Notes: generated from the letters alone by a model not told the origin. Positions 15,099 through 48,166 are shown, counted from the stretch's first letter. The stretch: DNA of 64,000 nucleotides from an uncultured SAR86 cluster bacterium (GCA_902566955.1 CACFKX010000003.1:485-64484), one strand, 5' to 3'. Translations and numbers: made by a program.

Positions 15099-15272
15099 AT
15101 GAATCCTTTTACTATTGCAAAAGACATCAAAAATATAGAAAAAATCCTAAAACCTGCTTTAGAAAAATATATTCAAGGCGCTGGTTTTGCTAAAAGTGAT
15201 GAAATCAATGAGATTCTCAAGAAGATCTCTGAACTAGAAAAGAGAATAGACAAAATAGAAGAAAAACTATAA
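15099..15272 (+). CDS. small coiled-coil protein, possibly UbiK/BMFP-like
   Basis: Not in ORF track (57 aa). MNPFTIAKDIKNIEKILKPALEKYIQGAGFAKSDEINEILKKISELEKRIDKIEEKL. The C-terminal heptad pattern resembles the YqiC/UbiK C-terminus (weak recollection). Confidence 0.3.
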   Translation: MNPFTIAKDIKNIEKILKPALEKYIQGAGFAKSDEINEILKKISELEKRIDKIEEKL

Positions 15273-16885: not shown

Positions 16886-16888
16886 GGA

Positions 16889-27146: not shown

Positions 27147-29591
27147 TTACTTTAATGGTTTTAGATAATATAAAAGAGTTGGCAATAAAAGCAACGAACC
27201 TAAGATTGCCATGATCATGGCTAATGAAGTGAAAATTCCAAAGAATACAGAAGGATTAAAATTTGACGACAACAAGATTAAAAATCCAATAACTATTGTA
27301 GATGATGTATAAAACATCGCTCTTCCTATGGTTGTGTGACTATTCTTGAGGCATTCTTCGTAGTCTTTTGATATATCAAATTCTCTTTTAAACCTATGCA
27401 AGTAATGAATCGTATTATCAACACCAATCCCGATGCTGATCGCAGCAACGGTAACGGTCATAATATCCAATGGAACGCCAGAAAATCCTATAGAACCCAT
27501 GACAAAACCAGCTGCAAGAAAATTAGGAACCATGCCAATCAAAGCTAGGCTGACGGACCTAAAAAGAAATAAAAACATAACAAAGATTGCGATAAAAACT
27601 ATTCCCACGCTGCCAATCAAAGATGAAAAAAGACTCTGAAGTAAATTATTATAAATAACTGATATTCCTGTAAGTCTAAACTGTTGATTATCAAGACCAA
27701 ATTTATTTTCTAAATCATAATTTATTTCATCGATGAGATTCTTTCTGTTCAATCCATCTAGGGATTCTTTCACTCTTGCTTGAAGCCTTACTTGATTATC
27801 ATCATCAGAGATATACGAATTAAGTAAACTTTCTTTAATATCCTCTGGTAACAGCTCTCTCATGAAAGCTAATTCAAGATCATTAAGTTTTTTTCCGTTT
27901 GCTATTTCAGCAAGTTTTATTCCGCTTGATACAGATAAAACTTTTCCTATTTCAGTTCTTGATTCTAAATAGTCGTGAATTTCTTCTAGCCTATCTAAAT
28001 TTTGACTTGTAAACCAATACCCGCTGGCTGAGTCATCCATACCAAAAGGATCATCAAAATCTTCAAAATCATCATCTATCTGTTCTGTTACGGGAGCGTT
28101 TATTACCAAATCAAGGGGTGCCGTTCCCCCCAGCTTTTCATCAATTAAAGACAGTCCTTTATATATTTCTGTATCAGACTTGAAGTAGTCTATGAATTTA
28201 TTCTCAACAGATAGCATGGATATTCCAAGAACAGATAATCCAAAAACTATTAATGAAAAGAAAATAATTTTAATTCTGGAATTCTTAAAGATTTGGAATA
28301 TAAATAATGTTATTCCAGAGGACTGATCTTCTACATAATCTTTCTCTTTTTTGGGTAACTTAGAAATAACTGCGGGAAAAAAGGAAAAAGTCACCAAAAA
28401 AGCGATGACAATACTGGTAGCCATCAATAAACCAAAATCTGTAATAGGTTTTATATCGCTGACAATCAATGAGAGAAATGCGACTATTGTAGTTAGGGCA
28501 GTATAAAGACACGGCACAAACATTTGTGTCGAAGCCATTAACACTATCTCCTTTTGACTTAGCTCAGAGTTTTTAGATAGCAATTCCTGATATCTGACGA
28601 CTAAATGCATTGTCAAAGATATTGCAATGATCATCAGAAGAGCAATGTAGTTAGCAGAAACAACTGTTACTTTTAGTCCTGCAAAGCTTATTAAGCCGGT
28701 GACCAAAATTGCAGAGATAAAAGCGCTTATCAAAGGAAGTAAAATCCATCGAATTTGACGAAAAATAAAACCCAGTACAGTTATAAATAGTAGACCCACA
28801 GCAAAACCAAAAAAAACTATATCATTTAGAATAAATTGTATTGTGTCTGTGGATATCATTGGGCCGCCGCCAAGATAGATTTCAGCGTCATTTTTATATT
28901 TAGAGATTATTGCTCTTGTATCAGCAACCAACTTCTTTCTTGCGGCGACATTTTCATTCTGCAGGACATCGATTTCTTGAGAAAGTAAATCAAGTTGTAA
29001 TTGTCTCTCAGTTTCACTTAGAGAAGAATCTTCATTAATTCGATACCTTTCTTGTATCTTGGAATCATATTGAGTGGCAGGTTTGAGAATAGCTTGTAAG
29101 GCTACAGTATCTAATTGTTCACTTACCAAAAGGCCTCTATAGACTGGATTACGAGAGAATTCTTTTTTTGCTAAAGATAAATCAACGTTCTTTTTTCTTA
29201 GAGATATTGGATTACTTGCAATTTCAGATATTGATTGTCTTGGACTTTCTAGTAAAGGAACGTCGAGAAAGTTTAAAACAGAATCAATTTCTTCAAGTCC
29301 TTCTAACTCATCAGATAATTCTTCTATTTTTGTTAGGGTTTCTTGCGTGAATAATTCATCAAAAGGGGAATAAGTGACTACTAAAAAGTCACTCCCTCCT
29401 CCAAAAGTTTTATTTGTATCTCTGTAGAACTTAAGATCATCATCATCTTCTAGCAATAAGGTATCCGAAGAAGCATCTAGCTGAAAATATTGAACTCCAA
29501 AAGCTAGACCGAAGGTTATCAGTAAAACAAGCCCTAAAGTGATTGAAGATCTATAGACAACAAAATGTAAAATTTTTTGTACAAATGCCAT
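27147..29591 (-). CDS. RND/MMPL-superfamily exporter (two 6-TM bundles, two periplasmic loops)
   Basis: 814 aa. Duplicated topology (TM1, large loop, 5 TM; repeated). Typical predicted-exporter RND with sterol-sensing-domain-like bundles. Confidence 0.75.
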   Translation of the reverse strand: MAFVQKILHFVVYRSSITLGLVLLITFGLAFGVQYFQLDASSDTLLLEDDDDLKFYRDTNKTFGGGSDFLVVTYSPFDELFTQETLTKIEELSDELEGLEEIDSVLNFLDVPLLESPRQSISEIASNPISLRKKNVDLSLAKKEFSRNPVYRGLLVSEQLDTVALQAILKPATQYDSKIQERYRINEDSSLSETERQLQLDLLSQEIDVLQNENVAARKKLVADTRAIISKYKNDAEIYLGGGPMISTDTIQFILNDIVFFGFAVGLLFITVLGFIFRQIRWILLPLISAFISAILVTGLISFAGLKVTVVSANYIALLMIIAISLTMHLVVRYQELLSKNSELSQKEIVLMASTQMFVPCLYTALTTIVAFLSLIVSDIKPITDFGLLMATSIVIAFLVTFSFFPAVISKLPKKEKDYVEDQSSGITLFIFQIFKNSRIKIIFFSLIVFGLSVLGISMLSVENKFIDYFKSDTEIYKGLSLIDEKLGGTAPLDLVINAPVTEQIDDDFEDFDDPFGMDDSASGYWFTSQNLDRLEEIHDYLESRTEIGKVLSVSSGIKLAEIANGKKLNDLELAFMRELLPEDIKESLLNSYISDDDNQVRLQARVKESLDGLNRKNLIDEINYDLENKFGLDNQQFRLTGISVIYNNLLQSLFSSLIGSVGIVFIAIFVMFLFLFRSVSLALIGMVPNFLAAGFVMGSIGFSGVPLDIMTVTVAAISIGIGVDNTIHYLHRFKREFDISKDYEECLKNSHTTIGRAMFYTSSTIVIGFLILLSSNFNPSVFFGIFTSLAMIMAILGSLLLLPTLLYYLKPLK

Positions 29592-30780: not shown

Positions 30781-32223
30781 TCAGTCTTCTATGTAATTTA
30801 ATTCACTCAGTTTTTCTTGATGGCTTTCTTTGGTGGTCGTTACCAAGGAGATTGTAAACAAAGAAATGGACCAAAGAATTATTGAAGCAGTAATAGCTGT
30901 AAATCCGAAATTAAATAATATAGTTTCATCAACTTGACCAGGTACAGCATTTTTTGGCCATGCTGAGTAAGTCAGAATTAGACCAGCTGCAAAAGCTCCT
31001 GCGCCGCTCATACATTTAGCTGCAAAGGATCTTGCAGCAAGTAATGTTCCTTCCATTCGTCTTCCTGTTTTGATTTCAACTTCCTCGACTGTATCCCATA
31101 CCATCGAGTTTAATGTTGTGAAGGAAATCACTGATGTCGCCACACCGACAAAATGGAACAGAAGGACAGCCCCTAGAACAATTGGAGAGCCATTATCGGG
31201 TAATAAACCCAGCAACCTAAGAGCGATGACACCGTTTTCAACCGTTAATGATGTTGCAAAAAGAATTATTGCTCCGTTCCGCTTACCAAATTTATTCGCC
31301 AATAAAGGTGAGACAACGAGCCCAACAAGTGGAGCTAGAAATAAACTCAATCCAATTGTTAATATATTTAATGGGGTAAACTCCCAGAAAAAACTATAAA
31401 AGTACAATGTTAAATTAGTAGCTATCCCGCCTGCTACACCCATCATAATCATGGCAATAAAAAGGATTATATAGTTTTTACTCACTGTCATCGTTTCGTA
31501 AAGTTCAGAGAAAATAACTTTTGGTGTTTTTCTTTGTATTTCAGGAGAATGTAAATCTTTTATGTGTCTGTGGGTTCCTAGTGCGGTAACGACAATGGCT
31601 AAAAACATAATTGGACTGCACACCAATCCGTAAGTCATCCATGTATCCGCAACAAATCTTGCATCTTGAGTCCCGGTATAGGTGCTATAAACTACAAAAA
31701 TCCATAAGGAATTCCACACAGCTAATCCACCCCACCAACCAAACCAATATCGATAAGAAAGCAATGAACTTCTTTCTACGTAATCTTTTGAAAGCTCAGG
31801 ACCTAAAGCATTACTTGGAATCTCATAGATAGTAATTGCAGTTCTTATGAGTGCGCCAATAATTAATAAAAACCAAAATAATTGAGATTGAGTTAAGTTA
31901 TCGGGAGGATCCCAAATCAAAAAAAATGAGATTGCAACGGGGACTGCTGAGAAATACATGAAAGGATGCCTTCTTCCCCATCTTGATTTCATGTTATCTG
32001 AATAATAGCCAATAAGAGGATCTGATATAGCATCAATCACCAGCATTAGAAGAATTGCTAATCCTGCCAAATCTGGAGATAGACCAAACACCTGAACATA
32101 GACAAACAATAGAAAATAATTGAAAGCATTATCCTTTATTCCATATGCTAAAGAACCAAACCCATAAAAGAATTTCGTCAGAAAAGGAAGTTTATGCGGA
32201 TTATTTAATTTATCTGTTTCCAT
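30781..32223 (-). CDS. GPH-family (MFS_2) cation symporter, paralog 2
   Basis: 480 aa, 12 TM spans. GYYSDNMKSRWGRRHPFM loop motif typical of glycoside-pentoside-hexuronide symporters. Paralog of 35317-36768. Confidence 0.75.
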   Translation of the reverse strand: METDKLNNPHKLPFLTKFFYGFGSLAYGIKDNAFNYFLLFVYVQVFGLSPDLAGLAILLMLVIDAISDPLIGYYSDNMKSRWGRRHPFMYFSAVPVAISFFLIWDPPDNLTQSQLFWFLLIIGALIRTAITIYEIPSNALGPELSKDYVERSSLLSYRYWFGWWGGLAVWNSLWIFVVYSTYTGTQDARFVADTWMTYGLVCSPIMFLAIVVTALGTHRHIKDLHSPEIQRKTPKVIFSELYETMTVSKNYIILFIAMIMMGVAGGIATNLTLYFYSFFWEFTPLNILTIGLSLFLAPLVGLVVSPLLANKFGKRNGAIILFATSLTVENGVIALRLLGLLPDNGSPIVLGAVLLFHFVGVATSVISFTTLNSMVWDTVEEVEIKTGRRMEGTLLAARSFAAKCMSGAGAFAAGLILTYSAWPKNAVPGQVDETILFNFGFTAITASIILWSISLFTISLVTTTKESHQEKLSELNYIED

Positions 32224-32306
32224 CTATCTCCTACGATTGAAGTATCTCATAAAATACAGATAATTGAAGTAAATGGTTAAATCAAGTACAGATATCGAGA
32301 AGCTTA

Positions 32307-34550
32307 TTAATCAAGCTTTGAAACAGCTAAGTTAGGTTGTTTTAAGGGACTTAGATAAATTGGTGATGACCAAGCTCTTTCTTCTGACATTGAAATACAG
32401 TTATCTTCTATGTCTGTCTTATACCCACCATAACAAAAATTTGTTTCAATACAGTTTCCTTCATCGTCATAGGTACACCTGAGATTTTTGCCATTTATTC
32501 GCTTAGTTGGTTCTTGTATAGCTCGAACATAAAAAGTTGCATCTCGATTATCTGAAACAAAATCTTCGTCTTGAAATCTAATTTTGCAAGAAGCCTTATT
32601 TTCTTCACATTCAAATATTTTCCAAGGATCCATAATCAATTCTTCTGGTTTTTCTGATGCATTGATTTCAGGCAAAACCTTTATAATTTCTATTCTTGAT
32701 ATTGAGTATCTTTCTGAACCAGGATTAAAACATTCATTCATACAGAGATTTTTAATATCCTCTGCTGATCTTTTGCCTAGACTATAATCTGGACAACCAG
32801 GTTTTTGTTTAAAGGAACCAACAGCTTTAACTTGAAAAGTTGGATTCTCATCTAAATAAATTTCAGAACCCATTGGAATCAATCCATTTTCTGTAATTAG
32901 ATCAAACCAAAGCAAAATTCTTGGTCCGCTCGTTCCGTAAGTTTCTCTTCTTTTAAATGCTTCCCAAACTCCTTCTCTGCTTCTTGAATCAACATGAACT
33001 GCAGCCAAACCGCCAGTGGTAAAAAAAGTTTCCTGTCTTTCTGACTCCCAGTAAGCCAATGGATTAGGTATGAACCTTTCCTCAATTTTGAATTCTACTG
33101 GTGTATCACTGATTTCATCTAAAGGATAAGAGAGTCTTTCAAAAGCAGGATTCTTTATGCCGTTTGATTCAGTAGTCAGTAACCTATCAACGGCTTTGTA
33201 TCCAGTACCTGGCCGAGCTCTGTGATTATCACTAGATGCTATAACACCAAAAATAAATTTCTCGTTATTTCTGCCTTTTTGGGTCAAAGCATATTGAAAA
33301 GAACCCTTAGGTCGATAATTAAAACTTGGGATAAAACAATCCTTGCACTGCCCCGAATCAAGCCATGATTCAGGCGTTGCTCCTGGAACGACAAAATGTC
33401 CGGACTGACCTGCCTGTAAATAGAAAATCTCAGCTTGCGAAGCGTCTTGTCTGCATTCATTTTCCCTCTTCCCATTTTCTATGCATCTTTCATAAATAAT
33501 TTTTCCAGCCTGCTTGCAAGAAGGAAGATAATTATCAGACTCTTCAGGGCAAATTAAATTATCACCATCAAAAATAACCTCGTTCCAACTTCTATATTCC
33601 TCTGAATTTCCATGTCCGGACATGATTTCGAAAGAAATTTGTCTATCCGGATCGTGAACATCATCTAGTTTGTCGTCCCAGGAAGTTCCTAAAGGACTGT
33701 AAAATCCCCATGTGTTGCCATGTGGGATTACTATCGAGTCGGTTTTTAAGGCATTTAATTTTGTGAAAAGCTCTTTAGGAGTATCAGCCGAGATAAGACA
33801 ATCCTCATTATCATTTGCGCTACCGGAACATACTGGAGAATCAGAAATATCTGTGTTGTAGGCAATGAAATCATAATATCTTTGCCTGTTGCTAAGATCA
33901 CTATATGCTTGGACCATCATATTTACACGAGCTTCGGTCACTCTAGTAGGATCTCTAAAATTATTAAGGCTGTCACCACCAGCAGCGATTGGTGATTTAG
34001 GCAAATATTCTGAGTCAATCTCTTTCAAAATAACATTTTTATGTCCATAGTGCTCTTCTCGGTTATCTCCAATTTGGGTCCATTCAAAACCCAAAAAGGT
34101 AATCATATCTGGATTTTCAGGATCAGTACTTTTATTACAGCTTTGAACTTGTTCTATTGTATTGTTCCAATTATGGGGAGTGCTGGCCTCAGCATGATCA
34201 GAGATAACCCAAAAATCTAGAGCCGAACAAAATCTTGCGTAATCACAAGCATCTGAAACTGGATGAGGACCTCTTCCGTTATACATTGGCAGGCTCCATA
34301 AAAACGCATCAGTAGAATATGTTGTATGTACATGGGTATCACCAAAAAGAATCTGTTTTGAGGAACTGGAGTGCTTGAGTTGACTTCTAATTTTTGAATT
34401 TAAAATTTTTTTTGGTAATTCAGCATTTATAGATTTTCCTCCGGGTTCCAAAGATCCAAAATAGCCATAAAAAGCAAATAAACTATAAGTAAGAACAATA
34501 ACAAGCGTTGTAAAAAGTAAATAAAAAAATGATTTAAAAAATATTCGCAT
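32307..34550 (-). CDS. DUF3604 protein (PHP-like metal-dependent hydrolase), N-terminally membrane-anchored, Cys-rich
   Basis: 747 aa. One N-terminal TM span. GDTHVHTTYSTDAF and ISDHAE motifs characteristic of DUF3604/PHP fold. More than 20 Cys suggest a periplasmic location. Confidence 0.75.
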   Translation of the reverse strand: MRIFFKSFFYLLFTTLVIVLTYSLFAFYGYFGSLEPGGKSINAELPKKILNSKIRSQLKHSSSSKQILFGDTHVHTTYSTDAFLWSLPMYNGRGPHPVSDACDYARFCSALDFWVISDHAEASTPHNWNNTIEQVQSCNKSTDPENPDMITFLGFEWTQIGDNREEHYGHKNVILKEIDSEYLPKSPIAAGGDSLNNFRDPTRVTEARVNMMVQAYSDLSNRQRYYDFIAYNTDISDSPVCSGSANDNEDCLISADTPKELFTKLNALKTDSIVIPHGNTWGFYSPLGTSWDDKLDDVHDPDRQISFEIMSGHGNSEEYRSWNEVIFDGDNLICPEESDNYLPSCKQAGKIIYERCIENGKRENECRQDASQAEIFYLQAGQSGHFVVPGATPESWLDSGQCKDCFIPSFNYRPKGSFQYALTQKGRNNEKFIFGVIASSDNHRARPGTGYKAVDRLLTTESNGIKNPAFERLSYPLDEISDTPVEFKIEERFIPNPLAYWESERQETFFTTGGLAAVHVDSRSREGVWEAFKRRETYGTSGPRILLWFDLITENGLIPMGSEIYLDENPTFQVKAVGSFKQKPGCPDYSLGKRSAEDIKNLCMNECFNPGSERYSISRIEIIKVLPEINASEKPEELIMDPWKIFECEENKASCKIRFQDEDFVSDNRDATFYVRAIQEPTKRINGKNLRCTYDDEGNCIETNFCYGGYKTDIEDNCISMSEERAWSSPIYLSPLKQPNLAVSKLD

Positions 34551-34554
34551 CAGG

Positions 34555-35316
34555 CTATTTTCGATATTTATCTTCAGACTTATTTATAAAATCTTTAAGA
34601 AAGTCTCTTGGATTTTCATCTCTAAAGTTCATATTAGCGTTTTGCCAAGGCCTTGAATGGGGAGTATCAAATAATTTTACGTCCTTCTTTTTGAAAAAAG
34701 GCACAAGAACCATTCCGGCAATAAACCCACCGATATGAGCTAAGTAAGCAACCCCTCCTTCATCTTGTAATGAACTTGGTAGGCTAAAAAACTGACCTAA
34801 AATCCAAAAACCTAAGACAATAAAGGCAGGAATTCTTATAACTTGTATAAAAATAATTAAAAAAACAAAACAACTTACGTTTGCTCTTGGATGTAACATT
34901 AAATAGGCGCCTAAAACGCCTGCAATTGCTCCGCTTGCACCTACCATCGGTATATTTGAATCAGGATTAACCAAAGCTTGAGATAACGCAGCGATAAGAC
35001 CACAAGTTATATAAAACAGTACGAACCGTATCCTTCCCATGGATTCTTCAACGTTGTCGCCAAAAATCCAAAGATAAACCATATTCCCCACTATATGGGC
35101 AATACCGCCATGAAGAAACATAGAAGAGATAATTGTTAAATCAAAAAAAGAATTGGAAAAAAATCTATCTGGAATAAAACCAAAATCTAAGAATATTTGT
35201 CCAGGCATCCCAGCAAGAAATTGAAAAACAAAAACAATCGTACAAGCGACAACAATAAATTGCGTTACGTACGGCCTTATGGATGTTGGATTATCGTCAT
35301 ATAAAGGAAAAAACAT
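34555..35316 (-). CDS. rhomboid-family intramembrane serine protease
   Basis: 253 aa. GASGAIAGVLGAY (catalytic Ser), AHIGGFIAG (catalytic His), and the HxxxN region (HIVGNM). Confidence 0.88.
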   Translation of the reverse strand: MFFPLYDDNPTSIRPYVTQFIVVACTIVFVFQFLAGMPGQIFLDFGFIPDRFFSNSFFDLTIISSMFLHGGIAHIVGNMVYLWIFGDNVEESMGRIRFVLFYITCGLIAALSQALVNPDSNIPMVGASGAIAGVLGAYLMLHPRANVSCFVFLIIFIQVIRIPAFIVLGFWILGQFFSLPSSLQDEGGVAYLAHIGGFIAGMVLVPFFKKKDVKLFDTPHSRPWQNANMNFRDENPRDFLKDFINKSEDKYRK

Positions 35317-36768
35317 TTATGTCTTATAGCCTAACTCGTCAACTGCGGAAGTATGTGAATCTCTAGTTATAGAGTAAAAGTAAATGAATCCTAATCCAGC
35401 AAAATTTAGTATTGGCCCACTGATGCATACAAAAATGACTAAGTTGTTAATGGGTTCTTGCATCTGCTCAACGTTTGATTGAGAGTTATCGAATCCTAGA
35501 AACTGCAATACAAAACCTATTATAAAAACACCAAGGCCTGAAAATATTTTTTGGAATAATCCTGGGCCGGACAAGAAGAGTCCTTCGTCTCTTCTCCCGG
35601 TTCTCATTTGACTATCCTCAACAACATCAAACATCATTGAAATCATTACTACCCAACCCATAACAGAGAAGATGTCAGTTATACAAAGATGCATTAACAT
35701 CACCCACCAGAGAGTATCGGATCCGTTAACAGGAAAAGTCTGCACTTCAAAATAAGGATCAACTAATCTTAGAATGTATGGGATATATGAAATTGCAATT
35801 GTTCCAGTAAAAGCTAAAAGTGCAATAATTCTTTTTTCTCTGCCTTTAGAAATTGCGACTGCGATAACTGCTCCAATAATTGCAGAGATTCCTCCTGCTA
35901 AAGGAAAAATGGATATATCTGACGGAGTCCACTGCCAAAAATAAACACTGATGTAATTAGCAATACCATTATTTAACCCCAAAAAAAGAGCATACAGACA
36001 CCCAGCTAAAAAGATCATCAACCATGATCTATTAGAAAGTGCCTCTATGACTTCTGCTAATACATTTTTTAACTTAATTGGTCCTGATGGTTCAACAACA
36101 TGAAGATCCTTAATATGTTTATGAGTACTGGATGCAGCTGTTACTCCTAAAATTATCACGAGAAAAGCAGCAAAATAAGCAAGCTTTTCGTATCCTTCTG
36201 GGTTTAAGAAAGCCGTTGAGCCCTGAAATTGCTCTGTTTCAGGTAAAAAATATTCAAGCATCACGAACCCAATGACTATTGCTCCAACGTATCCAAAGAA
36301 AATACCCATCCCATTAAGTAAATTTCTTCTATCGTAATCTTTGGTTAATTCTGGACCTAAAGCAGCTCTAGGTGTTTCGAAAAAAGTGATAGCTAACCTA
36401 ATGAGTATCGTTAAAACGAGCAATTTAACAAACAAGTAACTCTGGTCGTAAGAATTAGGCGGCGTGAATAATAACCAAACGCATATTGCTAAGGGAATGA
36501 TGCTGGCATAAATAAAAGGATGTCTCCTACCTAGCCTAGATCTAATACGATCTGACCAAACTCCAACTAGAGGATCCGATATGGCATCGAAAAAAAGAGA
36601 GATACCAATCGCAATTGAAGCTAAATATGGCTGCAAACCTAAAACTTGGTTGTAATACAAAAGAACCCAAGCACCAAAAATAACATTTTTAATCCCTACA
36701 ACGCCTGATCCTGCTGAATGTAGAAAAAGTGTAAGGTTTGAAACTTTAAATTCTTTTACTTCTGACAT
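35317..36768 (-). CDS. GPH-family (MFS_2) cation symporter, paralog 1
   Basis: 483 aa, 12 TM spans. GVWSDRIRSRLGRRHPFI loop motif. Its stop codon abuts the rhomboid start codon with no spacer. Confidence 0.75.
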   Translation of the reverse strand: MSEVKEFKVSNLTLFLHSAGSGVVGIKNVIFGAWVLLYYNQVLGLQPYLASIAIGISLFFDAISDPLVGVWSDRIRSRLGRRHPFIYASIIPLAICVWLLFTPPNSYDQSYLFVKLLVLTILIRLAITFFETPRAALGPELTKDYDRRNLLNGMGIFFGYVGAIVIGFVMLEYFLPETEQFQGSTAFLNPEGYEKLAYFAAFLVIILGVTAASSTHKHIKDLHVVEPSGPIKLKNVLAEVIEALSNRSWLMIFLAGCLYALFLGLNNGIANYISVYFWQWTPSDISIFPLAGGISAIIGAVIAVAISKGREKRIIALLAFTGTIAISYIPYILRLVDPYFEVQTFPVNGSDTLWWVMLMHLCITDIFSVMGWVVMISMMFDVVEDSQMRTGRRDEGLFLSGPGLFQKIFSGLGVFIIGFVLQFLGFDNSQSNVEQMQEPINNLVIFVCISGPILNFAGLGFIYFYSITRDSHTSAVDELGYKT

Positions 36769-36836: not shown

Positions 36837-37745
36837 ATGGGAAGATTAAATGGCAAGATTGCTGTAGTAACTGGAGCTGGCCGCGGTATCGGCAAAGAAA
36901 CTGCACTTTTTTTAGCTAGTGAGGGTGCCAAGGTCGTTGTCAATGATTTGGGCGGCAATACAGATGGTACAGGCGGCACTCAAATAGCAGATGAAGTAGT
37001 AGAAGAAATTAAATCCGCTGGCGGAGATGCAGTAGCAAATTACGATAGCGTTTCCGAATTTGCTGGAGGGCAAAATATTTTTCAAACAGCCATAGATGCA
37101 TTTGGTGGAATGGATATCCTGATCAATAATGCAGGAATCTTAAGAGACAAAACTCTTTTTAATATGGAAGAAAATGATTGGGATCAAGTCATTGCTGTCC
37201 ATCTTAAAGGGCACTTTAATTGCACCAAGCCTTTTGTCTCCTATATAAGAGAAACTAATAGGACGGACTGCAGAATAATCAACATGTCGTCGGTTTCTGG
37301 ATTGTATGGAAATTTTGGACAAACCAATTATGGTGCTGCTAAGGCGGGTATTGCTGGATTTACAAGAAGCCTATCTTTTGAAATGGCTAAATATAAATGT
37401 ACTGTAAATACAATCTCGCCTGGAGCAGCTACCAGAATGACCATTGACTTGATTAAAGCCGCAGGAAGGGATGTTGATGTGAATGATTGGAAACAAGGCC
37501 CACAACAACTAGCTCCTGTCATTACCTGGTTATGCTGTGATGAAGCATCAGATGTAACCAATCAAATCATTCATGTTCAAAACGGAACGGTAGGAATTAT
37601 GCAGCAGCCTGCAGTGATTGAATCTTTCTTATCAGAAGAGCTATGGTCTCTAGATCAATTAGACAGAGTTATTGGAAACCTAGTTGAGACTAAAAAGAAC
37701 CATGATTCTGAGGTTCAAAAAAAGGCAGAACCAAAAAAATCTTAA
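36837..37745 (+). CDS. SDR oxidoreductase, MFE-2/HSD17B4-type (3R)-hydroxyacyl-CoA dehydrogenase-like
   Basis: 302 aa. [38 protein letters not shown]. Strong resemblance to the N-terminal dehydrogenase domain of peroxisomal multifunctional enzyme 2 (recollection). Confidence 0.85.
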
Positions 37746-38314
37746 CTAGCTTTGTAAATAGATTTTTTAGTTTGAGAGAGTACATTCCTTAACATAGGAA
37801 TAAATGTCTCAATAGGCTCTGTATCGTATTCTGGATCAAAAGAATTTTGATCGTATTTTGCACAAAATTCTGCACAATCTTTCCAATGCGGGTTACCTTT
37901 GAATTTATCTCTCATGTTTTTATCCAATCCTAGGAAATCAAAAAAGTAATAGCCTTGAAAAATTCCGTGATGTTTAAGAATCCAATAGTTTTTTTCGGAA
38001 ATAAATGGTTCAAGCATAGTTGCTGCAAAATCTGCATGATTTGCTGGCGCTAAAGTATCTCCAATATCATGAAGGAGCGCACAAACAATATATTCTTCAT
38101 CTCTACCATCGCGCATTGCCCTGGTTGCAGTTTGCAAACAGTGAGTGTACCTATCTACTGCAAAACCACCGTGATCGCCTTTCAATAACTCTAGGTGTTC
38201 AATCATTCGGTCTGGAAGATTGACGCTGTGCTGCATACTGGCTTCTGCGATTATTTGATAATCCTCAGCTGTGCCTTTGGTCATAGTTGTGAATTTTGCT
38301 AATTTTTCAGCCAT
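37742..38314 (-). CDS. HD-domain protein, PhnZ/TmpB (mixed-valent diiron oxygenase)-like
   Basis: 190 aa. Ligand-like series THCLQ ... LLHDIGD ... NHADF ... KHHGIFQGYYF ... YDQNSFD follows the H/HD/H/H/D pattern of HD-domain oxygenases (recollection). Confidence 0.6.
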   Translation of the reverse strand: MAEKLAKFTTMTKGTAEDYQIIAEASMQHSVNLPDRMIEHLELLKGDHGGFAVDRYTHCLQTATRAMRDGRDEEYIVCALLHDIGDTLAPANHADFAATMLEPFISEKNYWILKHHGIFQGYYFFDFLGLDKNMRDKFKGNPHWKDCAEFCAKYDQNSFDPEYDTEPIETFIPMLRNVLSQTKKSIYKAS

Positions 38315-39873: not shown

Positions 39874-40884
39874 TCAATTCTTTTTCTTAAGTAAATAATG
39901 GGATACGAACCATTCTTTCCCATTATTAATTTTAAAAAATTCTTCACAAGTTAAGAAAAATATCCTCCACCTGTAAAACCATATATTTTGTTCATCATAA
40001 TGGTGGTTTAAAATTTGTTTAATAATTCTAGAATTTTTATCCATATTTTTTAACCATGCTTTTGAGGTTTTAGAATAATGTTCTCCATTTATTTGCCACG
40101 ACTTTACGACAGTCAAATCTTCATCAAAAAACTCAAATATATCTTTTGAAGGCATTATGCCCCCCGTAAAGAAGTACTTTGTCATCCAATCCCTTTCATT
40201 CTTTATTTCGTATAGATATGCAGATTGCCTATGACAAAACATGTGAACGAACAATTGACCTTCATCGACCATAAGATTAGATAGTCGTTTTAATAAACTT
40301 TTATAATTTCTCATATGCTCAAACATTTCTATCGAAATAATTCGATCAAAATTATTTCTTAAATTTAACTGATTTATATCTTGCTTTAATACGAAAAGGT
40401 TTGTCATTCCTAATTCTGAAGCCTTGGATTTAATGAAATTAATTTGATCGTCAGAGTTACTGACTGCTGTAAAATTAGAGTTTGGAAATTTTTGTGCAGC
40501 GTAAAGGGAGAAACTACCCCATCCACATCCTAGATCTAAAATTTCTTGCTTTGGTCTAATGTCAGCTCTTTCAATATAAAAATTAAGCATCTCTGTTTCG
40601 GCATCATTTAAACTTTTTTGATTATCGCTAAACAGACTGCAAGAGTATTTGAGCTTACTTCCCAAAACCTTTTCAAAAAAAGCTGGAGGAACTTCATAAT
40701 GTTGTCTATTTGCAGATGGAGTTGATTCAGCTATTGGTCCATCTTTCAAAGAACTTATTACAGTAAGTTTTTCAGAAACTCTGTTTGACTTTTTTATTCT
40801 TGCTTTGCTTATAAACCTTACTGAAATTCTTAACAAAAAATCTGGAATCCAGCCTCTCTCTGCAAGCCAAATTCCTAAAATCAT
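39874..40884 (-). CDS. cyclopropane-fatty-acyl-phospholipid synthase family SAM-dependent methyltransferase
   Basis: 336 aa. ILDLGCGWGSFSLYAA SAM motif and the CMAS-type C-terminal region (IEMFEHM). Confidence 0.85.
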   Translation of the reverse strand: MILGIWLAERGWIPDFLLRISVRFISKARIKKSNRVSEKLTVISSLKDGPIAESTPSANRQHYEVPPAFFEKVLGSKLKYSCSLFSDNQKSLNDAETEMLNFYIERADIRPKQEILDLGCGWGSFSLYAAQKFPNSNFTAVSNSDDQINFIKSKASELGMTNLFVLKQDINQLNLRNNFDRIISIEMFEHMRNYKSLLKRLSNLMVDEGQLFVHMFCHRQSAYLYEIKNERDWMTKYFFTGGIMPSKDIFEFFDEDLTVVKSWQINGEHYSKTSKAWLKNMDKNSRIIKQILNHHYDEQNIWFYRWRIFFLTCEEFFKINNGKEWFVSHYLLKKKN

Positions 40885-40957
40885 TTAATAACAATTAGGT
40901 TTTTCATCGGAAATTAATTGTGGTGACCACGAACATCAAAGGTTTTTAAGCATTAAA

Positions 40958-41033
<76 letters not shown>

Positions 41034-41125
41034 GTTTATATAATTAGTTTAGCTACTTTACTATTTTTGAATATTTTTTGCTTGCGTGTGAATATGATAA
41101 ATTATCTCTGCGAGAGGAAATAAAA

Positions 41126-43012
41126 ATGCAAAATTATTCTTTTGATCCTGATTATCTCAGAGATAAGTACAGACAAGAAAGAGATAAACGTCTTCGTGAA
41201 GATGGGAACGATCAATATCAAGAAGTAAGCGGAGATTTTTCTTACTTTGTTGATGATCCCTATATAAGTGAAGCAATTGAAAGGCAAGCTTTAACTGATT
41301 CTTATGAAATAGTGATCATTGGAGGCGGTTTTGGTGGTGTTCTAGCTGCATCTAGACTCAAAGAAGCTGGGTTTTCTGATTTTAAAATCATTGAAAAAGG
41401 CGGTAACTTTGGAGGAACTTGGTATTGGAACAGATACCCAGGCGCATCGTGCGATATAGAGTCCTATATCTATTTTCCATTACTAGAAGAAACAAAATTT
41501 ATTCCTGGAAAAAAATACACCAACGCACCCGAAACTTTAGAATATTTTGATGTTATCTCAGAAAAATTTGGGTTGAATGAACATGCTATTTTCCAAACTG
41601 AAGTAAACGATGTTAGGTGGAAAGACGACGAAAGACTTTGGGAAATAAATACTAATAAAGGAGATAAGATTAAATGTAATTATGTTGTTCATGCCAATGG
41701 ACCTCTTAATCGTCCTAAATTGCCTGCAATAAATGGAATTAATGATTTCAAGGGACATACTTTTCATACAAGTAGATGGGATTATCAATACACAGGAGGA
41801 TCTTCAAAGGGAAATCTATCTAACCTTAAAGATAAAAGAGTAGCTGTTATTGGCACAGGCGCCACTGCAGTCCAATGCATACCTCACCTAGCAGAGTCTG
41901 CAAAGCAATTGTATGTGTTTCAAAGGACGCCCTCTTCTATCGATGAAAGAAATAACACAGAAACCAACGAAGATTGGTTTCTAAATCAATCACCCGGTTG
42001 GCAGTCTAAAAGAAGAGAAAATTTTGAAGGTTTTTTAACAGGAAACTTTAATGGCAAAGATTTAGTCAACGATGGATGGACAGAGGTTTTTAGAAGAATA
42101 TTGGGCGCCATGTTAAATAACGGCCCTTCCAAATTTAGAATTTTTCTTTGGACTTTGGGTTCTGTATTTTCAAGAAAACTTTATACCGAGGGATTAAGAT
42201 CTTATCTGCAAGGTAAATTCATGTCCCATGTCGGAGTTAAAAATTTAGCTAAGCAAGTTGAGATGGCTGACTTTGAAAAAATGGAACAAATAAGAGCTAG
42301 GGCTGATTCTGTTGTCAACGATCCAGAGACTGCGGAATCGCTTAAACCCTATTATCGACAATTTTGTAAACGTCCTTGTTTTCATGATGAATATTTATCT
42401 GCTTTCAATAACGATAACGTTGAATTAGTGGATACAGACGGTAAAGGTGTGGATACGATCTCTGAAAAAGGAATAATTTTCAATGGCAAAGAGTATGAAG
42501 TTGACTGCATTATATTTGCTACCGGATTTGAGGTTGGCACTGAGTACACCAGAAGATGCGGTTATGAAATTTACGGCAAGAATGGTTTACGCGTTACCGA
42601 AAAGTGGAAAGATGGTTTATCAACACTCCATGGAATGCACGCAAATGGTTTTCCTAACTGTTTTTTCTTTGGACCTCAACAAGGTGCATTCACTGCTAAC
42701 TACACTCACTCCCTTGATGAGCAAAGCATTCATCTGTCTTACATATTGAAAAAAATGAAAGAAGATAAATTAACTTTTGTTGAAGCTTCCAAAGAGGCTG
42801 AAGCAGATTGGGTGGATACAATAATAGCTAAGTCTCGTGACATGCGAGATTTTAGAGAAAGTTGCACTCCTGGTTATTACAACAACGAAGGTAAACCTAA
42901 TCTGGAGCCACAAAATAATCCTTACGGTGGTGGACCATTGGAGTTCTTTTCTATGATGGATAAATGGCGAAAAGAAGGAAAATTAGAAGGTTTAGAATTA
43001 TCTGGAAATTAA
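41126..43012 (+). CDS. Baeyer-Villiger (type I flavin-dependent) monooxygenase
   Basis: IIGGGFGG FAD motif, BVMO fingerprint FKGHTFHTSRWD, second GxGxxA (VIGTGATA). ATG 41126 has a GAGGA RBS and is preferred over the upstream TTG. About 628 aa, so longer than typical CHMO-type enzymes. Confidence 0.88.
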   Translation: MQNYSFDPDYLRDKYRQERDKRLREDGNDQYQEVSGDFSYFVDDPYISEAIERQALTDSYEIVIIGGGFGGVLAASRLKEAGFSDFKIIEKGGNFGGTWYWNRYPGASCDIESYIYFPLLEETKFIPGKKYTNAPETLEYFDVISEKFGLNEHAIFQTEVNDVRWKDDERLWEINTNKGDKIKCNYVVHANGPLNRPKLPAINGINDFKGHTFHTSRWDYQYTGGSSKGNLSNLKDKRVAVIGTGATAVQCIPHLAESAKQLYVFQRTPSSIDERNNTETNEDWFLNQSPGWQSKRRENFEGFLTGNFNGKDLVNDGWTEVFRRILGAMLNNGPSKFRIFLWTLGSVFSRKLYTEGLRSYLQGKFMSHVGVKNLAKQVEMADFEKMEQIRARADSVVNDPETAESLKPYYRQFCKRPCFHDEYLSAFNNDNVELVDTDGKGVDTISEKGIIFNGKEYEVDCIIFATGFEVGTEYTRRCGYEIYGKNGLRVTEKWKDGLSTLHGMHANGFPNCFFFGPQQGAFTANYTHSLDEQSIHLSYILKKMKEDKLTFVEASKEAEADWVDTIIAKSRDMRDFRESCTPGYYNNEGKPNLEPQNNPYGGGPLEFFSMMDKWRKEGKLEGLELSGN

Positions 43013-43842
43013 CCCGCTATGGTAATTCTATGTAAAAGCCTGTCATGGCCGTCATAGCCTCCTTCCGCCATATGCATTACTGAGCGGTTATCCCACATCA
43101 ATAGAGTATCTTCAGACCATTTGTGACGATAAATATATTTATCTTGAAGAATGTGCTCGTATAGAGAAGTTAATAAGTTGAAAGATTCTTCATCGCTCTT
43201 TGACTCTATTCCAATGGTATAGACAGGATTAATAAAAAGAGTATCAAGTTTAGATTCATTATGTTTTTTAATGATCGGATGATTTTGCATAGCTTTGGCT
43301 TTTTTGCTTGTAACTATGTTCATGGATCTATCCTCTAATTCTGTGGCATAAAATCCATCATCAGCGTATGGCAACATCGCGCTATGCACACCAGACAAAT
43401 CTTTAATACTATCTCTGAGGCTAGGCTCTAGATCGATATAAGCATCTTTCGTAGAAGCAAAAAGTGTATCGCCTCCTACAGGCGGTATAATTTTTGAATA
43501 AAGTAGAGTCATGGCGGGAGGATTTTTCATAAAAGACCAATCAGAATGCCAAGTTCCTCCAAAAGGTGAAGTTTTTTCTTTGGCAGATCTTTTGACCTCA
43601 ACAATATGATTATGCTCAGGCATTGCTTTTAGATAAGGATCTTCACCGTAATCTCCAAAATACCTTGCAAATCGAGCAAACTCTTCATTCGAAATTTTTT
43701 GGTTTGGAAAAAAGACTACCTGATTTTCAATCCATGTTTGCCTTATCTCGTTTATTTGTTCTTCTGATAATTCCTTGGATAGGTCTATACCTTCAATTTT
43801 TGCGCCAAAATTATAGGTATCTATGTTTTTAGTGACTTTCAT
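43009..43842 (-). CDS. TauD/TfdA-family Fe(II)/2-oxoglutarate dioxygenase
   Basis: WHSDWSF (HxD facial triad), distal H in NRSVMH, R in RLLHRITI. ATG 43842 preferred over TTG 43869. Confidence 0.85.
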   Translation of the reverse strand: MKVTKNIDTYNFGAKIEGIDLSKELSEEQINEIRQTWIENQVVFFPNQKISNEEFARFARYFGDYGEDPYLKAMPEHNHIVEVKRSAKEKTSPFGGTWHSDWSFMKNPPAMTLLYSKIIPPVGGDTLFASTKDAYIDLEPSLRDSIKDLSGVHSAMLPYADDGFYATELEDRSMNIVTSKKAKAMQNHPIIKKHNESKLDTLFINPVYTIGIESKSDEESFNLLTSLYEHILQDKYIYRHKWSEDTLLMWDNRSVMHMAEGGYDGHDRLLHRITIAG

Positions 43843-43901
43843 AAAGCTAAATAGTAACGTTAAAGACAATATAAATAAAATTAAAAATTATTGGGAGTGA
43901 T

Positions 43902-44921
43902 ATGACAATTTCAAACGAAATCATCAATAAAAAATGGGTTCTTAAAGAAAGGCCTATTGGAATGGCAAAAAAGTCTGATTTTGAATTACAAGAAGAACAG
44001 ATGGATGATATTTCTGAAAATGAAATTATTTTGAAGAATAAATTTATTTCTTTCGATCCTACTCAAAGAGGCTGGCTCAATGATGCTCCTGGGTACCTAC
44101 CTCCAGTTCAGATAGATGAAGTTGTCAGAGCTATGGGTGTCGGTGAGGTAGTTGAGTCGAAGAACGATCAATATCAAGTTGGAGATTTAGTAATTGGTTT
44201 TACAGGCTGGCAAACCTATAACAAAACAGTCCCTTCGGATACAGGTAGATTTCGAAAGCTAAGTGATAAATTTCCCATTCCAACAACATTAAATGTTTTG
44301 GGAGCTACAGGTATAACCGCCTATTACGGAATAGTTGAACTTGGCCAAGTAAAAGAAGGTATGAATGTATTAGTGTCGGGTGCAGCTGGAGCAACCGGAT
44401 CTGTAGCTGCTCAGATTGCGAAACTTAATGGCTGTAATGTTATCGGGATTGCGGGTGGAGAGAGCAAATGCAGCTGGCTGAAAAATGATTGTGGCCTAGA
44501 TGAAGTCATCGATTATAAAAATTCTAATGTTGCTGATGAACTTAAAACAAAAGCTAAAAATGGAATAGATTTATTTTTTGATAACGTTGGAGGAGAAATT
44601 TTAGAGTCAGCTCTCAATCATATAAATCTAAATGCCAAAGTATTATTGTGTGGTGGTATCTCAGGATACAACTCTACCGAACCCTTGCCTGGTCCTAGAA
44701 ATCTTATGAATTTAGTTATTAGAAGAGCAACTATAGAGGGTTTTTTAGTGATGGATTATTTACCAAATTCTAAAAAAGCCCTAGAACAATTGGAGGAATA
44801 TCTCGAAAATAATCAGTTGGAACATCAGGAAGATATATTAAGTGGAATCGAAAATTGCCCGGACGCTTTAAATAGATTATTTACTGGCCAAAATATTGGT
44901 AAACAATTAGTAGAGGTCTAA
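43902..44921 (+). CDS. NADP-dependent alkenal/one oxidoreductase (LTB4 12-HD/PTGR1, YncB-like MDR)
   Basis: 339 aa. VSGAAGATGSVAAQIAK and the N-terminal KKWVLKERP..G pattern typical of this MDR subfamily. Confidence 0.85.
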   Translation: MTISNEIINKKWVLKERPIGMAKKSDFELQEEQMDDISENEIILKNKFISFDPTQRGWLNDAPGYLPPVQIDEVVRAMGVGEVVESKNDQYQVGDLVIGFTGWQTYNKTVPSDTGRFRKLSDKFPIPTTLNVLGATGITAYYGIVELGQVKEGMNVLVSGAAGATGSVAAQIAKLNGCNVIGIAGGESKCSWLKNDCGLDEVIDYKNSNVADELKTKAKNGIDLFFDNVGGEILESALNHINLNAKVLLCGGISGYNSTEPLPGPRNLMNLVIRRATIEGFLVMDYLPNSKKALEQLEEYLENNQLEHQEDILSGIENCPDALNRLFTGQNIGKQLVEV

Positions 44922-46849
44922 TTAAGATTTTCAGCTAGAAATCTCTCAATTTCTCTAAACATAACAAATCTATTGCCCTGCTCATCAAAGTAGTGAGTGG
45001 CCTTTGGTATTTCAAAGTATTCTACAGAATCATTGCTATTTTTTATTTTGTTGTAAAACATTGAGGATTGATTATGAGGAACTTGTGTATCGTAAGTTCC
45101 ATGAATAAGCAAAATAGGTTTTTTAATTTTATCTGTGTAATTAATTGCTGAAACTGAATCTAAATATTCTTTATCTTCAAAAGCATCGCCATGCATAATT
45201 TTATTCATTTTTGCAGAACCCCTAAAAAATGTCTCAGATCTTAACAGCTTAGTAAAATCTGAAATACCAGCAATACTCACAAAACATTTAAATTTATCTT
45301 GAGATTGAAAACTTCCTGTCAATGCTGCGTAACCTCCGTAACTTGCACCAACCATGCATGCTTTTTTACCATTTAGATCGTAATTTTGAACTACGTAATC
45401 AAAACCATCGATCATATCGTTTTGCATCTTCATGCCGGATTCTCTGTAACCAGAGATTTGATAATCTTTACCCCAACCCGCTGAGCCTCTGAACTGTGGT
45501 TGAAAAACCGCATAACCTTGACTGACCATAGCTTGAAGCCAAGGATCAAAATAATCGATTCTATCTCTCGCAGTTGGTCCGCCGTGAGGAAAAAGTATGA
45601 TGGGTGGATTTTTGACTCCTTCTGGAAGAGTTAAAAAACCATACAATTGATAATCATCTCGCGACTTATACTCTATAACTTTAGTAACAGAATTAACTTT
45701 GTTTTCTAACTGAGGATACTGACTCGAGATAAAAAAAGATTTACCGGTTTTTTTATCGAATCCAAAATATTTGCCTGGAGAGTTTGCATTGCGGATAGTT
45801 GCAATGAATCTAGAAAAGTCATTACTATAAGAACTAATGTTAATGTGATGACCTGGAAATGACTTTTTCAAAGATTTTATGATGCCATTTTCTTCAGGAT
45901 CAAAAAAATCGCACTCCCTCGTAAATCTTTCGTAGCAGACCATCTTAATCTCACCATCTTCAACTTCTAAAGATGCAATTTCGTGATCTTTCTTAGAGTA
46001 AATAGGCTTACTTAATTTTCCAGTTTCTAAGTTAAATTTTGAAATATATGAAAAGTTGCTATCAAAATTTGAGTATATGAATAAATTTCCATCATTTTTA
46101 TCGACGCCGCCAACGTAAAAATTATCGGTTGCAAGGTCTTCAGTGTTAGCCCTGTAAATCTCAGTCCAGCTATCATCTTTATTAGGTCGATAGAAGATCT
46201 TAGCTATACCCTCATCAGAATCATAGAAATCTGCAAATTGAATCTTGCCCTCTGAAACGATGAAATTGGTTACTCTGTCACCATCAGAATCAGTGAACGG
46301 TGATTCGATTTTTTTAAATCTATTATTCTTTAAATTAACTTCAAAAATAGCAACGGCTCTTTCTCTTGGATCGTAGTTAGAGACCAATATTTTATTTTCT
46401 TCATCTTCTAAAATATCAACTAAGGAGATGCTTTCGTATTTTGAAATATTTGAATTTTGCTTATCTTTATATATGGATTTATTTTCAATAATTTTAAAAT
46501 TTGAACCATCTGAATCTATTGTGTTCAGATCGTAAACTCTGAACGTTCTTTCTCTTACCTTTTCTGCTTTACTTGTTTGAAAAATAATCTTCTTATTATT
46601 AGCCCACTCTATCCATTCAAGTCGATCGTATTCGTTTTTAAGCGATGCAATGGGATTGAAATTAGTTGAGCCAAATTCTGTCACCACGATATAAGGCATG
46701 CCTTCAATGTTAGCTAAAGCAGCAATTTTTTCTCCGTCAGGAGATATGGTCACGTTGCTAAAAAAAGGGAGCTTTCCAAAATCTTTATAATCAAGAGCAG
46801 CTGAAGTCAGAGAGAATATTATAAAAATTAACAGGAAAGATTTTTTCAT
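44918..46849 (-). CDS. secreted S9-family serine peptidase (prolyl oligopeptidase/DPP-like)
   Basis: 643 aa. Signal peptide, N-terminal propeller-like region, GASYGGY nucleophile elbow, and C-terminal D and H (HGTYDTQVP, ATHYF). Confidence 0.82.
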   Translation of the reverse strand: MKKSFLLIFIIFSLTSAALDYKDFGKLPFFSNVTISPDGEKIAALANIEGMPYIVVTEFGSTNFNPIASLKNEYDRLEWIEWANNKKIIFQTSKAEKVRERTFRVYDLNTIDSDGSNFKIIENKSIYKDKQNSNISKYESISLVDILEDEENKILVSNYDPRERAVAIFEVNLKNNRFKKIESPFTDSDGDRVTNFIVSEGKIQFADFYDSDEGIAKIFYRPNKDDSWTEIYRANTEDLATDNFYVGGVDKNDGNLFIYSNFDSNFSYISKFNLETGKLSKPIYSKKDHEIASLEVEDGEIKMVCYERFTRECDFFDPEENGIIKSLKKSFPGHHINISSYSNDFSRFIATIRNANSPGKYFGFDKKTGKSFFISSQYPQLENKVNSVTKVIEYKSRDDYQLYGFLTLPEGVKNPPIILFPHGGPTARDRIDYFDPWLQAMVSQGYAVFQPQFRGSAGWGKDYQISGYRESGMKMQNDMIDGFDYVVQNYDLNGKKACMVGASYGGYAALTGSFQSQDKFKCFVSIAGISDFTKLLRSETFFRGSAKMNKIMHGDAFEDKEYLDSVSAINYTDKIKKPILLIHGTYDTQVPHNQSSMFYNKIKNSNDSVEYFEIPKATHYFDEQGNRFVMFREIERFLAENLN

Positions 46850-46873
46850 GAGCGAATTCTAACAAATAATTTT

Positions 46874-48097: not shown

Positions 48098-48166
48098 TTC
48101 TAGATTCCAACAATTACTTTGATAAGATTATTCCAACAACAAAATTAATTAGATAGGTAGGTTAAT

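Follow-up and report, generated by a model that had tools for sequence, protein, structure and literature searches.

Why does a predicted hydrolase of the DUF3604 family sit between a rhomboid protease and two predicted GPH symporters in a SAR86 genome, and do these four genes form one dedicated system? The block lies within the 64,000-nucleotide stretch of DNA analysed here (the window), and an ORF check confirmed the gene order, strand, sizes and spacers (0, 4 and 83 nt) that an earlier note on this DNA had given:

35317-36768, minus strand: MFS_A, a putative GPH/MFS_2-type cation symporter of 483 aa
34555-35316, minus strand: rhomboid intramembrane serine protease of 253 aa
32307-34550, minus strand: DUF3604, a predicted DUF3604-subfamily PHP-type metallohydrolase of 747 aa
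32224-32306, minus strand: the 83-nt spacer between DUF3604 and MFS_B, with AGGAG just before the MFS_B ATG
30781-32223, minus strand: MFS_B, a second putative GPH/MFS_2-type symporter, of 480 aa

The same four-gene order was found again in related SAR86 contigs, whose DUF3604 proteins are 51-55% identical, and an assembly accident is therefore excluded. The 0- and 4-nt spacers are nothing distinctive in this SAR86 genome, where packing is tight throughout: co-directional genes in the window have a median spacer of 4 nt (10 nt or less in 22 of 37), and coding sequence makes up about 95% of the window. We looked for a terminator-like site in the 83-nt spacer and found none, and a promoter and terminator scan of the whole block gave no useful signal: shuffled sequence contained more promoter-like sites than the block itself.

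The DUF3604 protein scores above the gathering threshold of Pfam DUF3604 (PF12228; E 1e-26, 94 bits, threshold 20.4), with the match split into two to four pieces, the best single stretch of which spans profile positions 321-412 of 591; neither a full-length match nor the typical architecture of ~590-670 aa was seen in this 747-aa protein. By comparison, a canonical DUF3604 copy (L022) reaches 328 bits, and the best E-value in the subfamily is 4.9e-37 vs 1.6e-97 for the canonical copy. Because all 33 aligned members match the profile weakly, the protein is, as judged from sequence, a member of a distinct, divergent ~745-aa subfamily of PF12228. This subfamily counts 1668 representatives at a cut-off of E ≤ 1e-3 and, at E ≤ 1e-30, about 300 clusters; its members come from SAR86, Parvibaculales, Halieaceae, Myxococcota, Binatia and Leptospira, and three loci (L019, L022 and L066) hold the canonical and ~745-aa forms together. 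The protein shares with PF12228 the ligand pattern HxH, DH, E, H, H, DxH and an extracytoplasmic N-terminus, but is longer (~745 aa vs ~600-670 aa in canonical forms), and its AF2 model shows additional inserts rich in Cys as well as a beta-rich domain at the C-terminus. The earlier note's remark that DUF3604 lacks an established function holds, as we found neither a solved structure nor a functional paper, and literature searches on DUF3604/PF12228, on HupE with PHP and PPIase, and on SAR86 with rhomboid/MFS returned no functional information. The features of the protein that bear on its location and chemistry, with the motifs located in the translation, are as follows:

34458-34547, minus strand: N-terminal signal anchor, residues 2-31, RIFFKSFFYLLFTTLVIVLTYSLFAFYGYF, the sole Kyte-Doolittle hydrophobic segment
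34302-34343, minus strand: PHP motif I, GDTHVHTTYSTDAF, residues 70-83 (H73, H75, D81)
34188-34205, minus strand: ISDHAE, residues 116-121 (D118, H119)
33714-33728, minus strand: IPHGN, a further candidate ligand motif
33591-33620, minus strand: SGHGNSEEYR, a further candidate ligand motif
33222-33236, minus strand: SSDNH, a further candidate ligand motif

The first of these features agrees with the single N-terminal transmembrane anchor described earlier, being the one hydrophobic segment (residues ~2-31), and is modelled by AF2 as a helix over residues 2-27. Subfamily homologs carry anchors, signal peptides or lipoboxes in the same place. The anchor, which has Gly residues near its outer end and no proline, would adopt a type II, N-in/C-out topology, and a periplasmic rather than cytoplasmic location of the catalytic domain is well supported. 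PHP motif I and ISDHAE, both named in the earlier note, are present in the protein. Among the 33 family members, H73 is kept in 30, H75 in 31 and D81 in 30, and the full set of candidate ligands (H73, H75, D81, D118, H119, E156, H170, H277, H313, D441 and H443) is kept in 29-33. The cysteines number exactly 20, not more than 20 as had been claimed; each is conserved in at least 23 of the 33 members, and 18 of the 20 in at least 29. These conserved cysteines and metal ligands, the lipoprotein-type N-termini of several homologs and the fold described below bear out the proposal of an extracytoplasmic, disulfide-rich, PHP-like protein.

The AF2 model built from a diverse alignment has a pLDDT of 91.3 and a pTM of 0.92; it replaced an earlier model from SAR86-only sequences that had a pLDDT of 67 and gave weak fold matches. 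Its best PDB match in Foldseek is 3e38 (BVU_3505), a PHP phosphoesterase with a beta-sandwich (probability 1.00, E 9e-4), and Pol III alpha PHP domains follow. The PHP barrel and C-terminal beta-sandwich of 3e38 align over 578 alignment columns with the metal-ligand motifs conserved, but identity is 9-10%, the TM-score is 0.48 on the target, and 3e38 itself is uncharacterised. An HxH motif with downstream His/Asp/Glu ligands on a distorted barrel, the mark of the PHP superfamily, is present in DUF3604, and its best structural kin are the PHP-domain metal-dependent phosphoesterases (3e38, 3e0f and the Pol III alpha PHP domain), from which it differs in its membrane anchor, periplasmic location, richness in disulfides and roughly doubled size. 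Searching PDB sequences with the protein and with the family profile yielded no significant hit, only a non-significant CHCH-like match to the Cys hairpin, and a scan of viral contigs gave no DUF3604 relatives. With these structural kin, the predicted chemistry would be that of a phosphoesterase. The N-terminal HxH region (residues 70-175) also matches the CehA/McbA family (NF038032) weakly, at E 2e-5, but the 24.2 bits lie below the cut-off of 80 and cover only positions 5-78 of the 315-position profile, so the protein is not a member. CehA/McbA relatives, which are likewise large exported hydrolases, act on carbamates such as carbaryl, which weakens the case for phosphoester chemistry.

Whether this enzyme belongs with its neighbours can be judged from other genomes. 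We examined 79 loci outside the core SAR86 clade (the core loci being L001-L005 and L087-L090) for genes within 8 kb of a DUF3604 homolog, using phmmer and a rhomboid HMM. A rhomboid was found at 0 of the 79, and adjoins DUF3604 in core SAR86 only. Any MFS_2 gene at all was found at four, of which three are either weak or encoded on the other strand and one is clear (L015, a Rhodobiaceae, hence alphaproteobacterial, MAG); the last is also the only one of the 79 to carry an MFS_2 gene of the same subfamily, and by a rough estimate the overall frequency is near chance level. Within SAR86 itself the arrangement is broken: the SAR86B copies of DUF3604 (L006/L007) are 65-68% identical to those inside the arrangement and nest among them in an NJ tree (one without bootstrap support values), and they have neither rhomboid nor MFS_2 nearby. 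At two other loci (L036/L037), the DUF3604 gene sits between purA and nusB/rib genes. The linkage of DUF3604, rhomboid and MFS_2 that the earlier note had put up for checking is thus not conserved.

The symporters were assigned from their profiles and from two family motifs located in the translation of MFS_A:

36571-36588, minus strand: DAISDP of MFS_A
36514-36531, minus strand: GRRHPF of MFS_A

Both proteins match Pfam MFS_2 strongly (E 4.4e-74 for MFS_A and 8.1e-76 for MFS_B; 250-256 bits vs a threshold of 27) and, like MelB and Mfsd2a, keep DAxxDP and GRRxP, with the GPH cation-site motif occurring as DAISDP in both. They are 32% identical to each other, which upholds their description as paralogs. 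Against TIGR00792 (gph) they score 145 and 159 bits, respectively, both below the cut-off of 231, and their matches to the MelB and Mfsd2a structures are weak (E 1e-8 to 1e-18), that to Mfsd2a lying mostly in the N-terminal third. The earlier note's first hypothesis joined enzyme and transporters in one pathway, in which DUF3604 frees a product resembling a glycoside or lyso-lipid that both symporters then import; as weighed here, the product might also be an organophosphorus head group, and uptake would be coupled to a cation. Such coupling would suit the four co-directional genes and their tight junctions, kept across core SAR86, as well as the shared DAISDP motif, the weak Mfsd2a and MelB matches and a PhnZ/TmpB-like HD protein encoded two genes away; it would also suit the clear outside case, where an MFS_2 gene 36% identical to MFS_B lies 1.7 kb downstream of the DUF3604 homolog. 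Against it, that case is the single clear one among 79 loci, the SAR86B enzyme manages without nearby symporters, and in two relatives (L087 and L089) an opposite-strand gene of 202 aa parts DUF3604 from MFS_B. The GH3 glycosidase gene upstream of the symporters in L004, L087 and L089 offers a different reason for their presence, although no GH3 was found among the ORFs scanned in the window. On this balance the first hypothesis is left without comparative support, and we regard it as unlikely.

The rhomboid, in turn, carries the following motifs in its translation:

35083-35097, minus strand: HIVGN
34927-34941, minus strand: GASGA, with the catalytic Ser128
34726-34740, minus strand: AHIGG, with the catalytic His194

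It matches Pfam Rhomboid (PF01694) with E 2.7e-35 and 122 bits (threshold 22.6) and has the GxSG serine and the TM6 histidine of the family, sharing a six-TM-type core and the catalytic Ser and His with bacterial rhomboids of known clients; GlpG structures match it at 2.5e-5. Known rhomboid pairs include GlpG/Rhom7 with orphan respiratory subunits, AarA with TatA, and rhombosortase with GlyGly-CTERM proteins. The present protein falls below the equivalog cut-offs for both GlpG (43 bits vs 250) and rhombosortase (34 vs 84), and a rhombosortase/GlyGly-CTERM pairing was rejected on this score and on the DUF3604 protein, which has no C-terminal hydrophobic tail and so differs from rhombosortase clients in lacking the C-terminal transmembrane segment that the GlyGly-CTERM signal needs. 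Orthologs of the rhomboid are 48-58% identical, and in each of the 7 other contexts the genes around them are unrelated; the rhomboid is a generic, widely conserved copy found in housekeeping contexts, and not a dedicated one as had been supposed. The second hypothesis, that this rhomboid cleaves the DUF3604 anchor and thereby releases the ectodomain or controls its turnover, would account for the 4-nt spacer or overlap between the two genes throughout core SAR86, and the catalytic residues are intact and the single-pass anchor has Gly near its outer end. It nevertheless appears very unlikely: no rhomboid accompanies the 79 other loci, yet homologs keep the anchor and a juxtamembrane G-x-x-E-x-x-G pattern, and the pair is broken in SAR86B. 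Moreover, the anchor of the candidate client is N-in and without proline, whereas the single-pass proteins that rhomboids preferentially cleave are N-out (type I/III) and contain a helix-breaking proline (PMC7232013). Bacterial rhomboids also clear orphan subunits of membrane complexes (PMC7232013), and, given how broadly this rhomboid type is conserved, it may be the cell's general quality-control protease for membrane proteins, with a wide range of clients to which orphan DUF3604 or the MFS proteins might belong, and no dedicated tie to either; as an account of the block we give this only a slim chance, and it is compatible with our preferred reading rather than opposed to it.

That preferred reading, which we consider probable, is that the arrangement is specific to one SAR86 lineage and is not a dedicated multi-component system, its core being an anchored periplasmic DUF3604 metallohydrolase of PHP fold. 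Two of the three findings that the earlier note had listed as counting against its own proposal were indeed made, namely a linkage that is not conserved and a generic rhomboid with unrelated neighbours. Two observations run the other way. Across SAR86 lineages the MFS_A-rhomboid-DUF3604 junctions range from overlaps to 17 nt while the proteins are only ~50% identical, as in a real operon, and L015 pairs a DUF3604 homolog with a same-subfamily MFS_2 gene independently. It is conceivable, if very unlikely, that MFS_A-rhomboid-DUF3604(-MFS_B) is a true module in core SAR86, in which an organophosphorus or glycosidic head group would be freed, the rhomboid would shed or turn over the enzyme even though the latter's anchor is of type II, and the symporters would import the product, possibly feeding the PhnZ/TmpB-like HD oxygenase; if so, the four-gene coupling would be confined to one SAR86 lineage.

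The recurrent partners of the DUF3604 subfamily are instead a SurA-like PPIase and a metal-transporter-like HupE/UreJ_2 protein, not rhomboids or symporters. Both lie within 2.5 kb of DUF3604 at 25 of 80 loci, and in 19 of those 25 the genes follow the co-directional order DUF3604, PPIase, HupE2. Homologs of these partner genes, which adjoin DUF3604 homologs in other taxa, are also present in the window:

11577-12362, minus strand: SurA-like PPIC-type PPIase with an N-terminal anchor, 261 aa (Pfam Rotamase_2, 6.7e-12)
10628-11584, minus strand: HupE_UreJ_2 membrane protein, 318 aa (Pfam HupE_UreJ_2, 3.5e-41)

The two genes overlap by 8 nt and lie 20 kb from DUF3604, so the window does not contain the adjacent co-directional triad, a grouping seen in this analysis that is not among the described families. 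They are probable distal partners of DUF3604-type enzymes, but their link to the ~745-aa enzyme is uncertain because their closest resemblance is to 'type 2' pairs, the kind found with canonical DUF3604 genes of ~660 aa.

Under the lineage-specific reading, the DUF3604 protein would most likely enter the membrane by way of the type II anchor at its N-terminus, acquire about ten disulfides on oxidation, and bind a multinuclear metal centre through its conserved His/Asp/Glu set. Its reaction, located outside the cytoplasm, would be ester hydrolysis, with a phosphoester as the most probable target. The PPIase may plausibly serve the folding of the enzyme and HupE/UreJ_2 its metal supply. In core SAR86 the gene would simply stand between a general-purpose rhomboid and two diverged, putatively GPH-type cation symporters, and would probably share a transcript with MFS_A and the rhomboid because genes in a streamlined genome are packed end to end.

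The four-gene composition as posed is thus of little importance, being ordinary synteny in a gene-dense genome. What carries forward is a large, well-delimited subfamily of PHP-type enzymes, periplasmic, rich in disulfides and wholly uncharacterised but now with a high-confidence structural model, for which the recurrent three-gene neighbourhood with PPIase and HupE/UreJ_2 is a better functional handle than the rhomboid or the symporters. Among uncultured marine heterotrophs, SAR86 bacteria rank with the most abundant, and their exported putative hydrolase is therefore of some ecological interest.

The minus-strand block comprises four co-directional open reading frames at the positions and with the Pfam families that the earlier note had assigned, separated by spacers of 0, 4 and 83 nt, and the two symporters at its ends, MFS_A and MFS_B, are indeed paralogous (32% identical):

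35317–36768, minus strand: MFS_A, 483 aa, Pfam MFS_2
34555–35316, minus strand: rhomboid, 253 aa, Pfam Rhomboid
32307–34550, minus strand: DUF3604 protein, 747 aa, Pfam DUF3604
30781–32223, minus strand: MFS_B, 480 aa, Pfam MFS_2

The window has a G+C content of ~35%, and the close homologs are labelled SAR86. Because ~95% of it is coding and the median spacer among co-directional genes is 4 nt, the tight spacers of the block carry no evidential weight; BolA lies just 1 nt beyond MFS_B. The earlier note had proposed that these genes constitute either a hydrolase–importer system or a protease–substrate pair, but the grouping is best read as lineage-specific synteny, with the proposed system unsupported. 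In core SAR86, the four-gene order and tight junctions are kept at ~51–55% identity for DUF3604 and 49% for the rhomboid, and the flanks are equally kept, with an SDR gene on the upstream side and, downstream, genes for BolA, TrhO, an MMPL transporter and a CoA-transferase, so that the arrangement is block synteny rather than a selectively retained quartet. A gene on the opposite strand splits DUF3604 from MFS_B in two of the core loci (L087 and L089). The SAR86B copies of DUF3604 (L006/L007), which are 65–68% identical to copies within the arrangement and nested among them in an NJ tree, are flanked by DUF1330, ADH, TPP enzyme and MBL-fold protein genes, and in a sister lineage (L036/L037) the gene sits between purA and nusB/rib genes.

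We surveyed 80 loci with DUF3604 homologs, one genome per species, searching all ORFs within 8 kb. A rhomboid was found near the homolog solely in the single core-SAR86 locus, and in none of the 79 others (phmmer and a rhomboid HMM from 108 homologs). MFS_2 genes gave one clear and three weak cases, by rough estimate about the chance rate, and with SAR86B lacking both partners, the linkage of DUF3604 with rhomboid and MFS_2 is not conserved. The clear case, a Rhodobiaceae MAG (L015, 10094–13135), is the sole convincing DUF3604/MFS_2 co-location outside SAR86; there, an MFS_2 gene sharing 36% identity with MFS_B comes second after the DUF3604 homolog, behind a 517-aa ORF. Both window symporters keep the GPH motifs DAxxDP and GRRxP, match MelB and Mfsd2a about equally weakly and fall under the NCBIfam gph cut-off. 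A GH3 glycosidase upstream in three related contigs (L004, L087 and L089) offers an alternative reason for the presence of glycoside-type symporters. A link in which the hydrolase feeds these importers within SAR86, where their order is kept, we consider possible but not probable.

The rhomboid is a generic copy. Homologs 48–58% identical occur in Azospirillum, Parvibaculales and other taxa, its scores are far under the GlpG and rhombosortase equivalog cut-offs, and its neighbours outside core SAR86 are unrelated and mostly housekeeping in all 7 contexts examined (for example PriA/rpsU, M16 peptidases and CinA/Map/purB). The unkept linkage and the generic rhomboid with unrelated neighbours elsewhere are thus two of the three outcomes that the earlier note had named as counting against its proposal. 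The single N-terminal hydrophobic segment suggested as the rhomboid's substrate is present in the DUF3604 protein; however, preferred rhomboid clients are N-out (type I/III) single-pass proteins with a helix-breaking proline (PMC7232013), whereas the DUF3604 anchor is N-in and lacks proline, and cleavage of DUF3604 by its neighbour is unlikely.

The DUF3604 protein itself exceeds the Pfam DUF3604 threshold through a piecewise match (94 bits). This behaviour is common to 33/33 diverse full-length relatives aligned, whereas a canonical (shorter, typical) DUF3604 of ~670 aa scores 328 bits on the same profile, which places the protein in a subfamily of its own, of ~745 aa. Among cluster representatives, searched exhaustively, 1668 relatives reached E ≤ 1e-3, and 297 reached E ≤ 1e-30. 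The motifs quoted previously lie at residues 70–83 and 116–121, and the cysteines number 20 rather than more than 20. All 20 are shared by at least 23/33 sequences, and 18 of them by at least 29/33; the candidate PHP-type ligands H73, H75, D81, D118, H119, E156, H170, H277, H313, D441 and H443 are kept in 29–33/33, and every aligned family member starts with an anchor, signal peptide or lipobox. Together these features point to an oxidising, extracytoplasmic location as the only sensible reading, and the original suggestion of a periplasmic enzyme is sound.

A sequence search of solved structures with this protein gave no match, and our literature search found no assigned function. With SAR86 sequences as the only input, the AF2 model was of low quality (pLDDT 67); one from a diverse alignment reached pLDDT 91.3 and pTM 0.92. 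Its top PDB match was 3e38 (probability 1.00, E 9e-4), a two-domain PHP-like phosphoesterase with a beta-sandwich, followed by Pol III alpha PHP domains. From this predicted fold, the inferred chemistry is metal-dependent hydrolysis of an ester, probably a phosphoester. Three full-length members of the family alignment (P0151, P0157 and P0158) have the HxH and several ligands (E156, H170, D441) replaced with the Cys pattern kept, and are probably catalytically inactive paralogs. Residues 334–366 (33453–33551, minus strand) carry C-x10-C-x10-C-x9-C on a predicted helix-turn-helix, likely a disulfide-stapled hairpin; the match to mitochondrial CHCH (twin Cx9C) proteins is weak and non-significant (E 0.33). 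Just past the anchor, an aromatic-G-x-x-E-x-x-G motif (residues ~29–38, window ~34437–34466), seen in many family members regardless of gene neighbours, hints at a conserved membrane-proximal interaction.

In the wider surroundings, a 190-aa HD-domain protein (37742–38314, minus strand), syntenic with the block in L001–L005 and far under NCBIfam cut-offs, has as its sole PDB sequence matches PhnZ (8.5e-5) and TmpB (3e-3), C–P-bond-cleaving HD diiron oxygenases of similar size. Genes at 15267–18265, 27147–29591 and 39874–49456 lean towards lipid or hydrophobic-compound metabolism, and include a P450, a steroid-5-alpha-reductase-like protein, DUF1295, an HAE3/MMPL RND transporter, a CMAS-like methyltransferase, a Baeyer-Villiger-type flavin monooxygenase, a TauD-family protein (43009–43869), an acyl-CoA dehydrogenase and an alkyl-sulfatase-like MBL protein.

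When the neighbours across the loci were clustered de novo, two families recurred: one of SurA-like PPIC-type PPIases carrying an N-terminal anchor, the other of HupE_UreJ_2 membrane proteins (HupE2). Both lie within 2.5 kb of the DUF3604 homolog in 25/80 loci, 19 of them in the co-directional order DUF3604, PPIase, HupE2, and we found no description of this trio, with its 745-aa DUF3604, in the literature searched. It spans Alpha- and Gammaproteobacteria, Myxococcota, Binatia and Leptospira, and sits at ~10.0–12.4 kb of each locus (L010, L012, L021, L028, L031, L034, L038, L044, L052, L062, L064 and others). Five loci (L019, L022, L066, L067 and L073) hold the ~745-aa form and a canonical ~650–700-aa DUF3604 a few kb apart, each sometimes with its own PPIase/HupE2 pair. 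The window has such a pair, whose genes overlap:

11577–12362, minus strand: SurA-like PPIase
10628–11584, minus strand: HupE_UreJ_2 membrane protein

The pair lies 20 kb from DUF3604, behind an MFS_1 gene. It may serve the DUF3604 protein, although it is closest to the 'type 2' pairs beside canonical DUF3604 in L019, L022 and L066; the window contains no canonical DUF3604. PPIase and HupE2 may help to fold a predicted ten-disulfide protein and to supply metal. The more useful lead is the uncharacterised ~745-aa PHP subfamily together with its PPIase/HupE_UreJ_2 neighbourhood.
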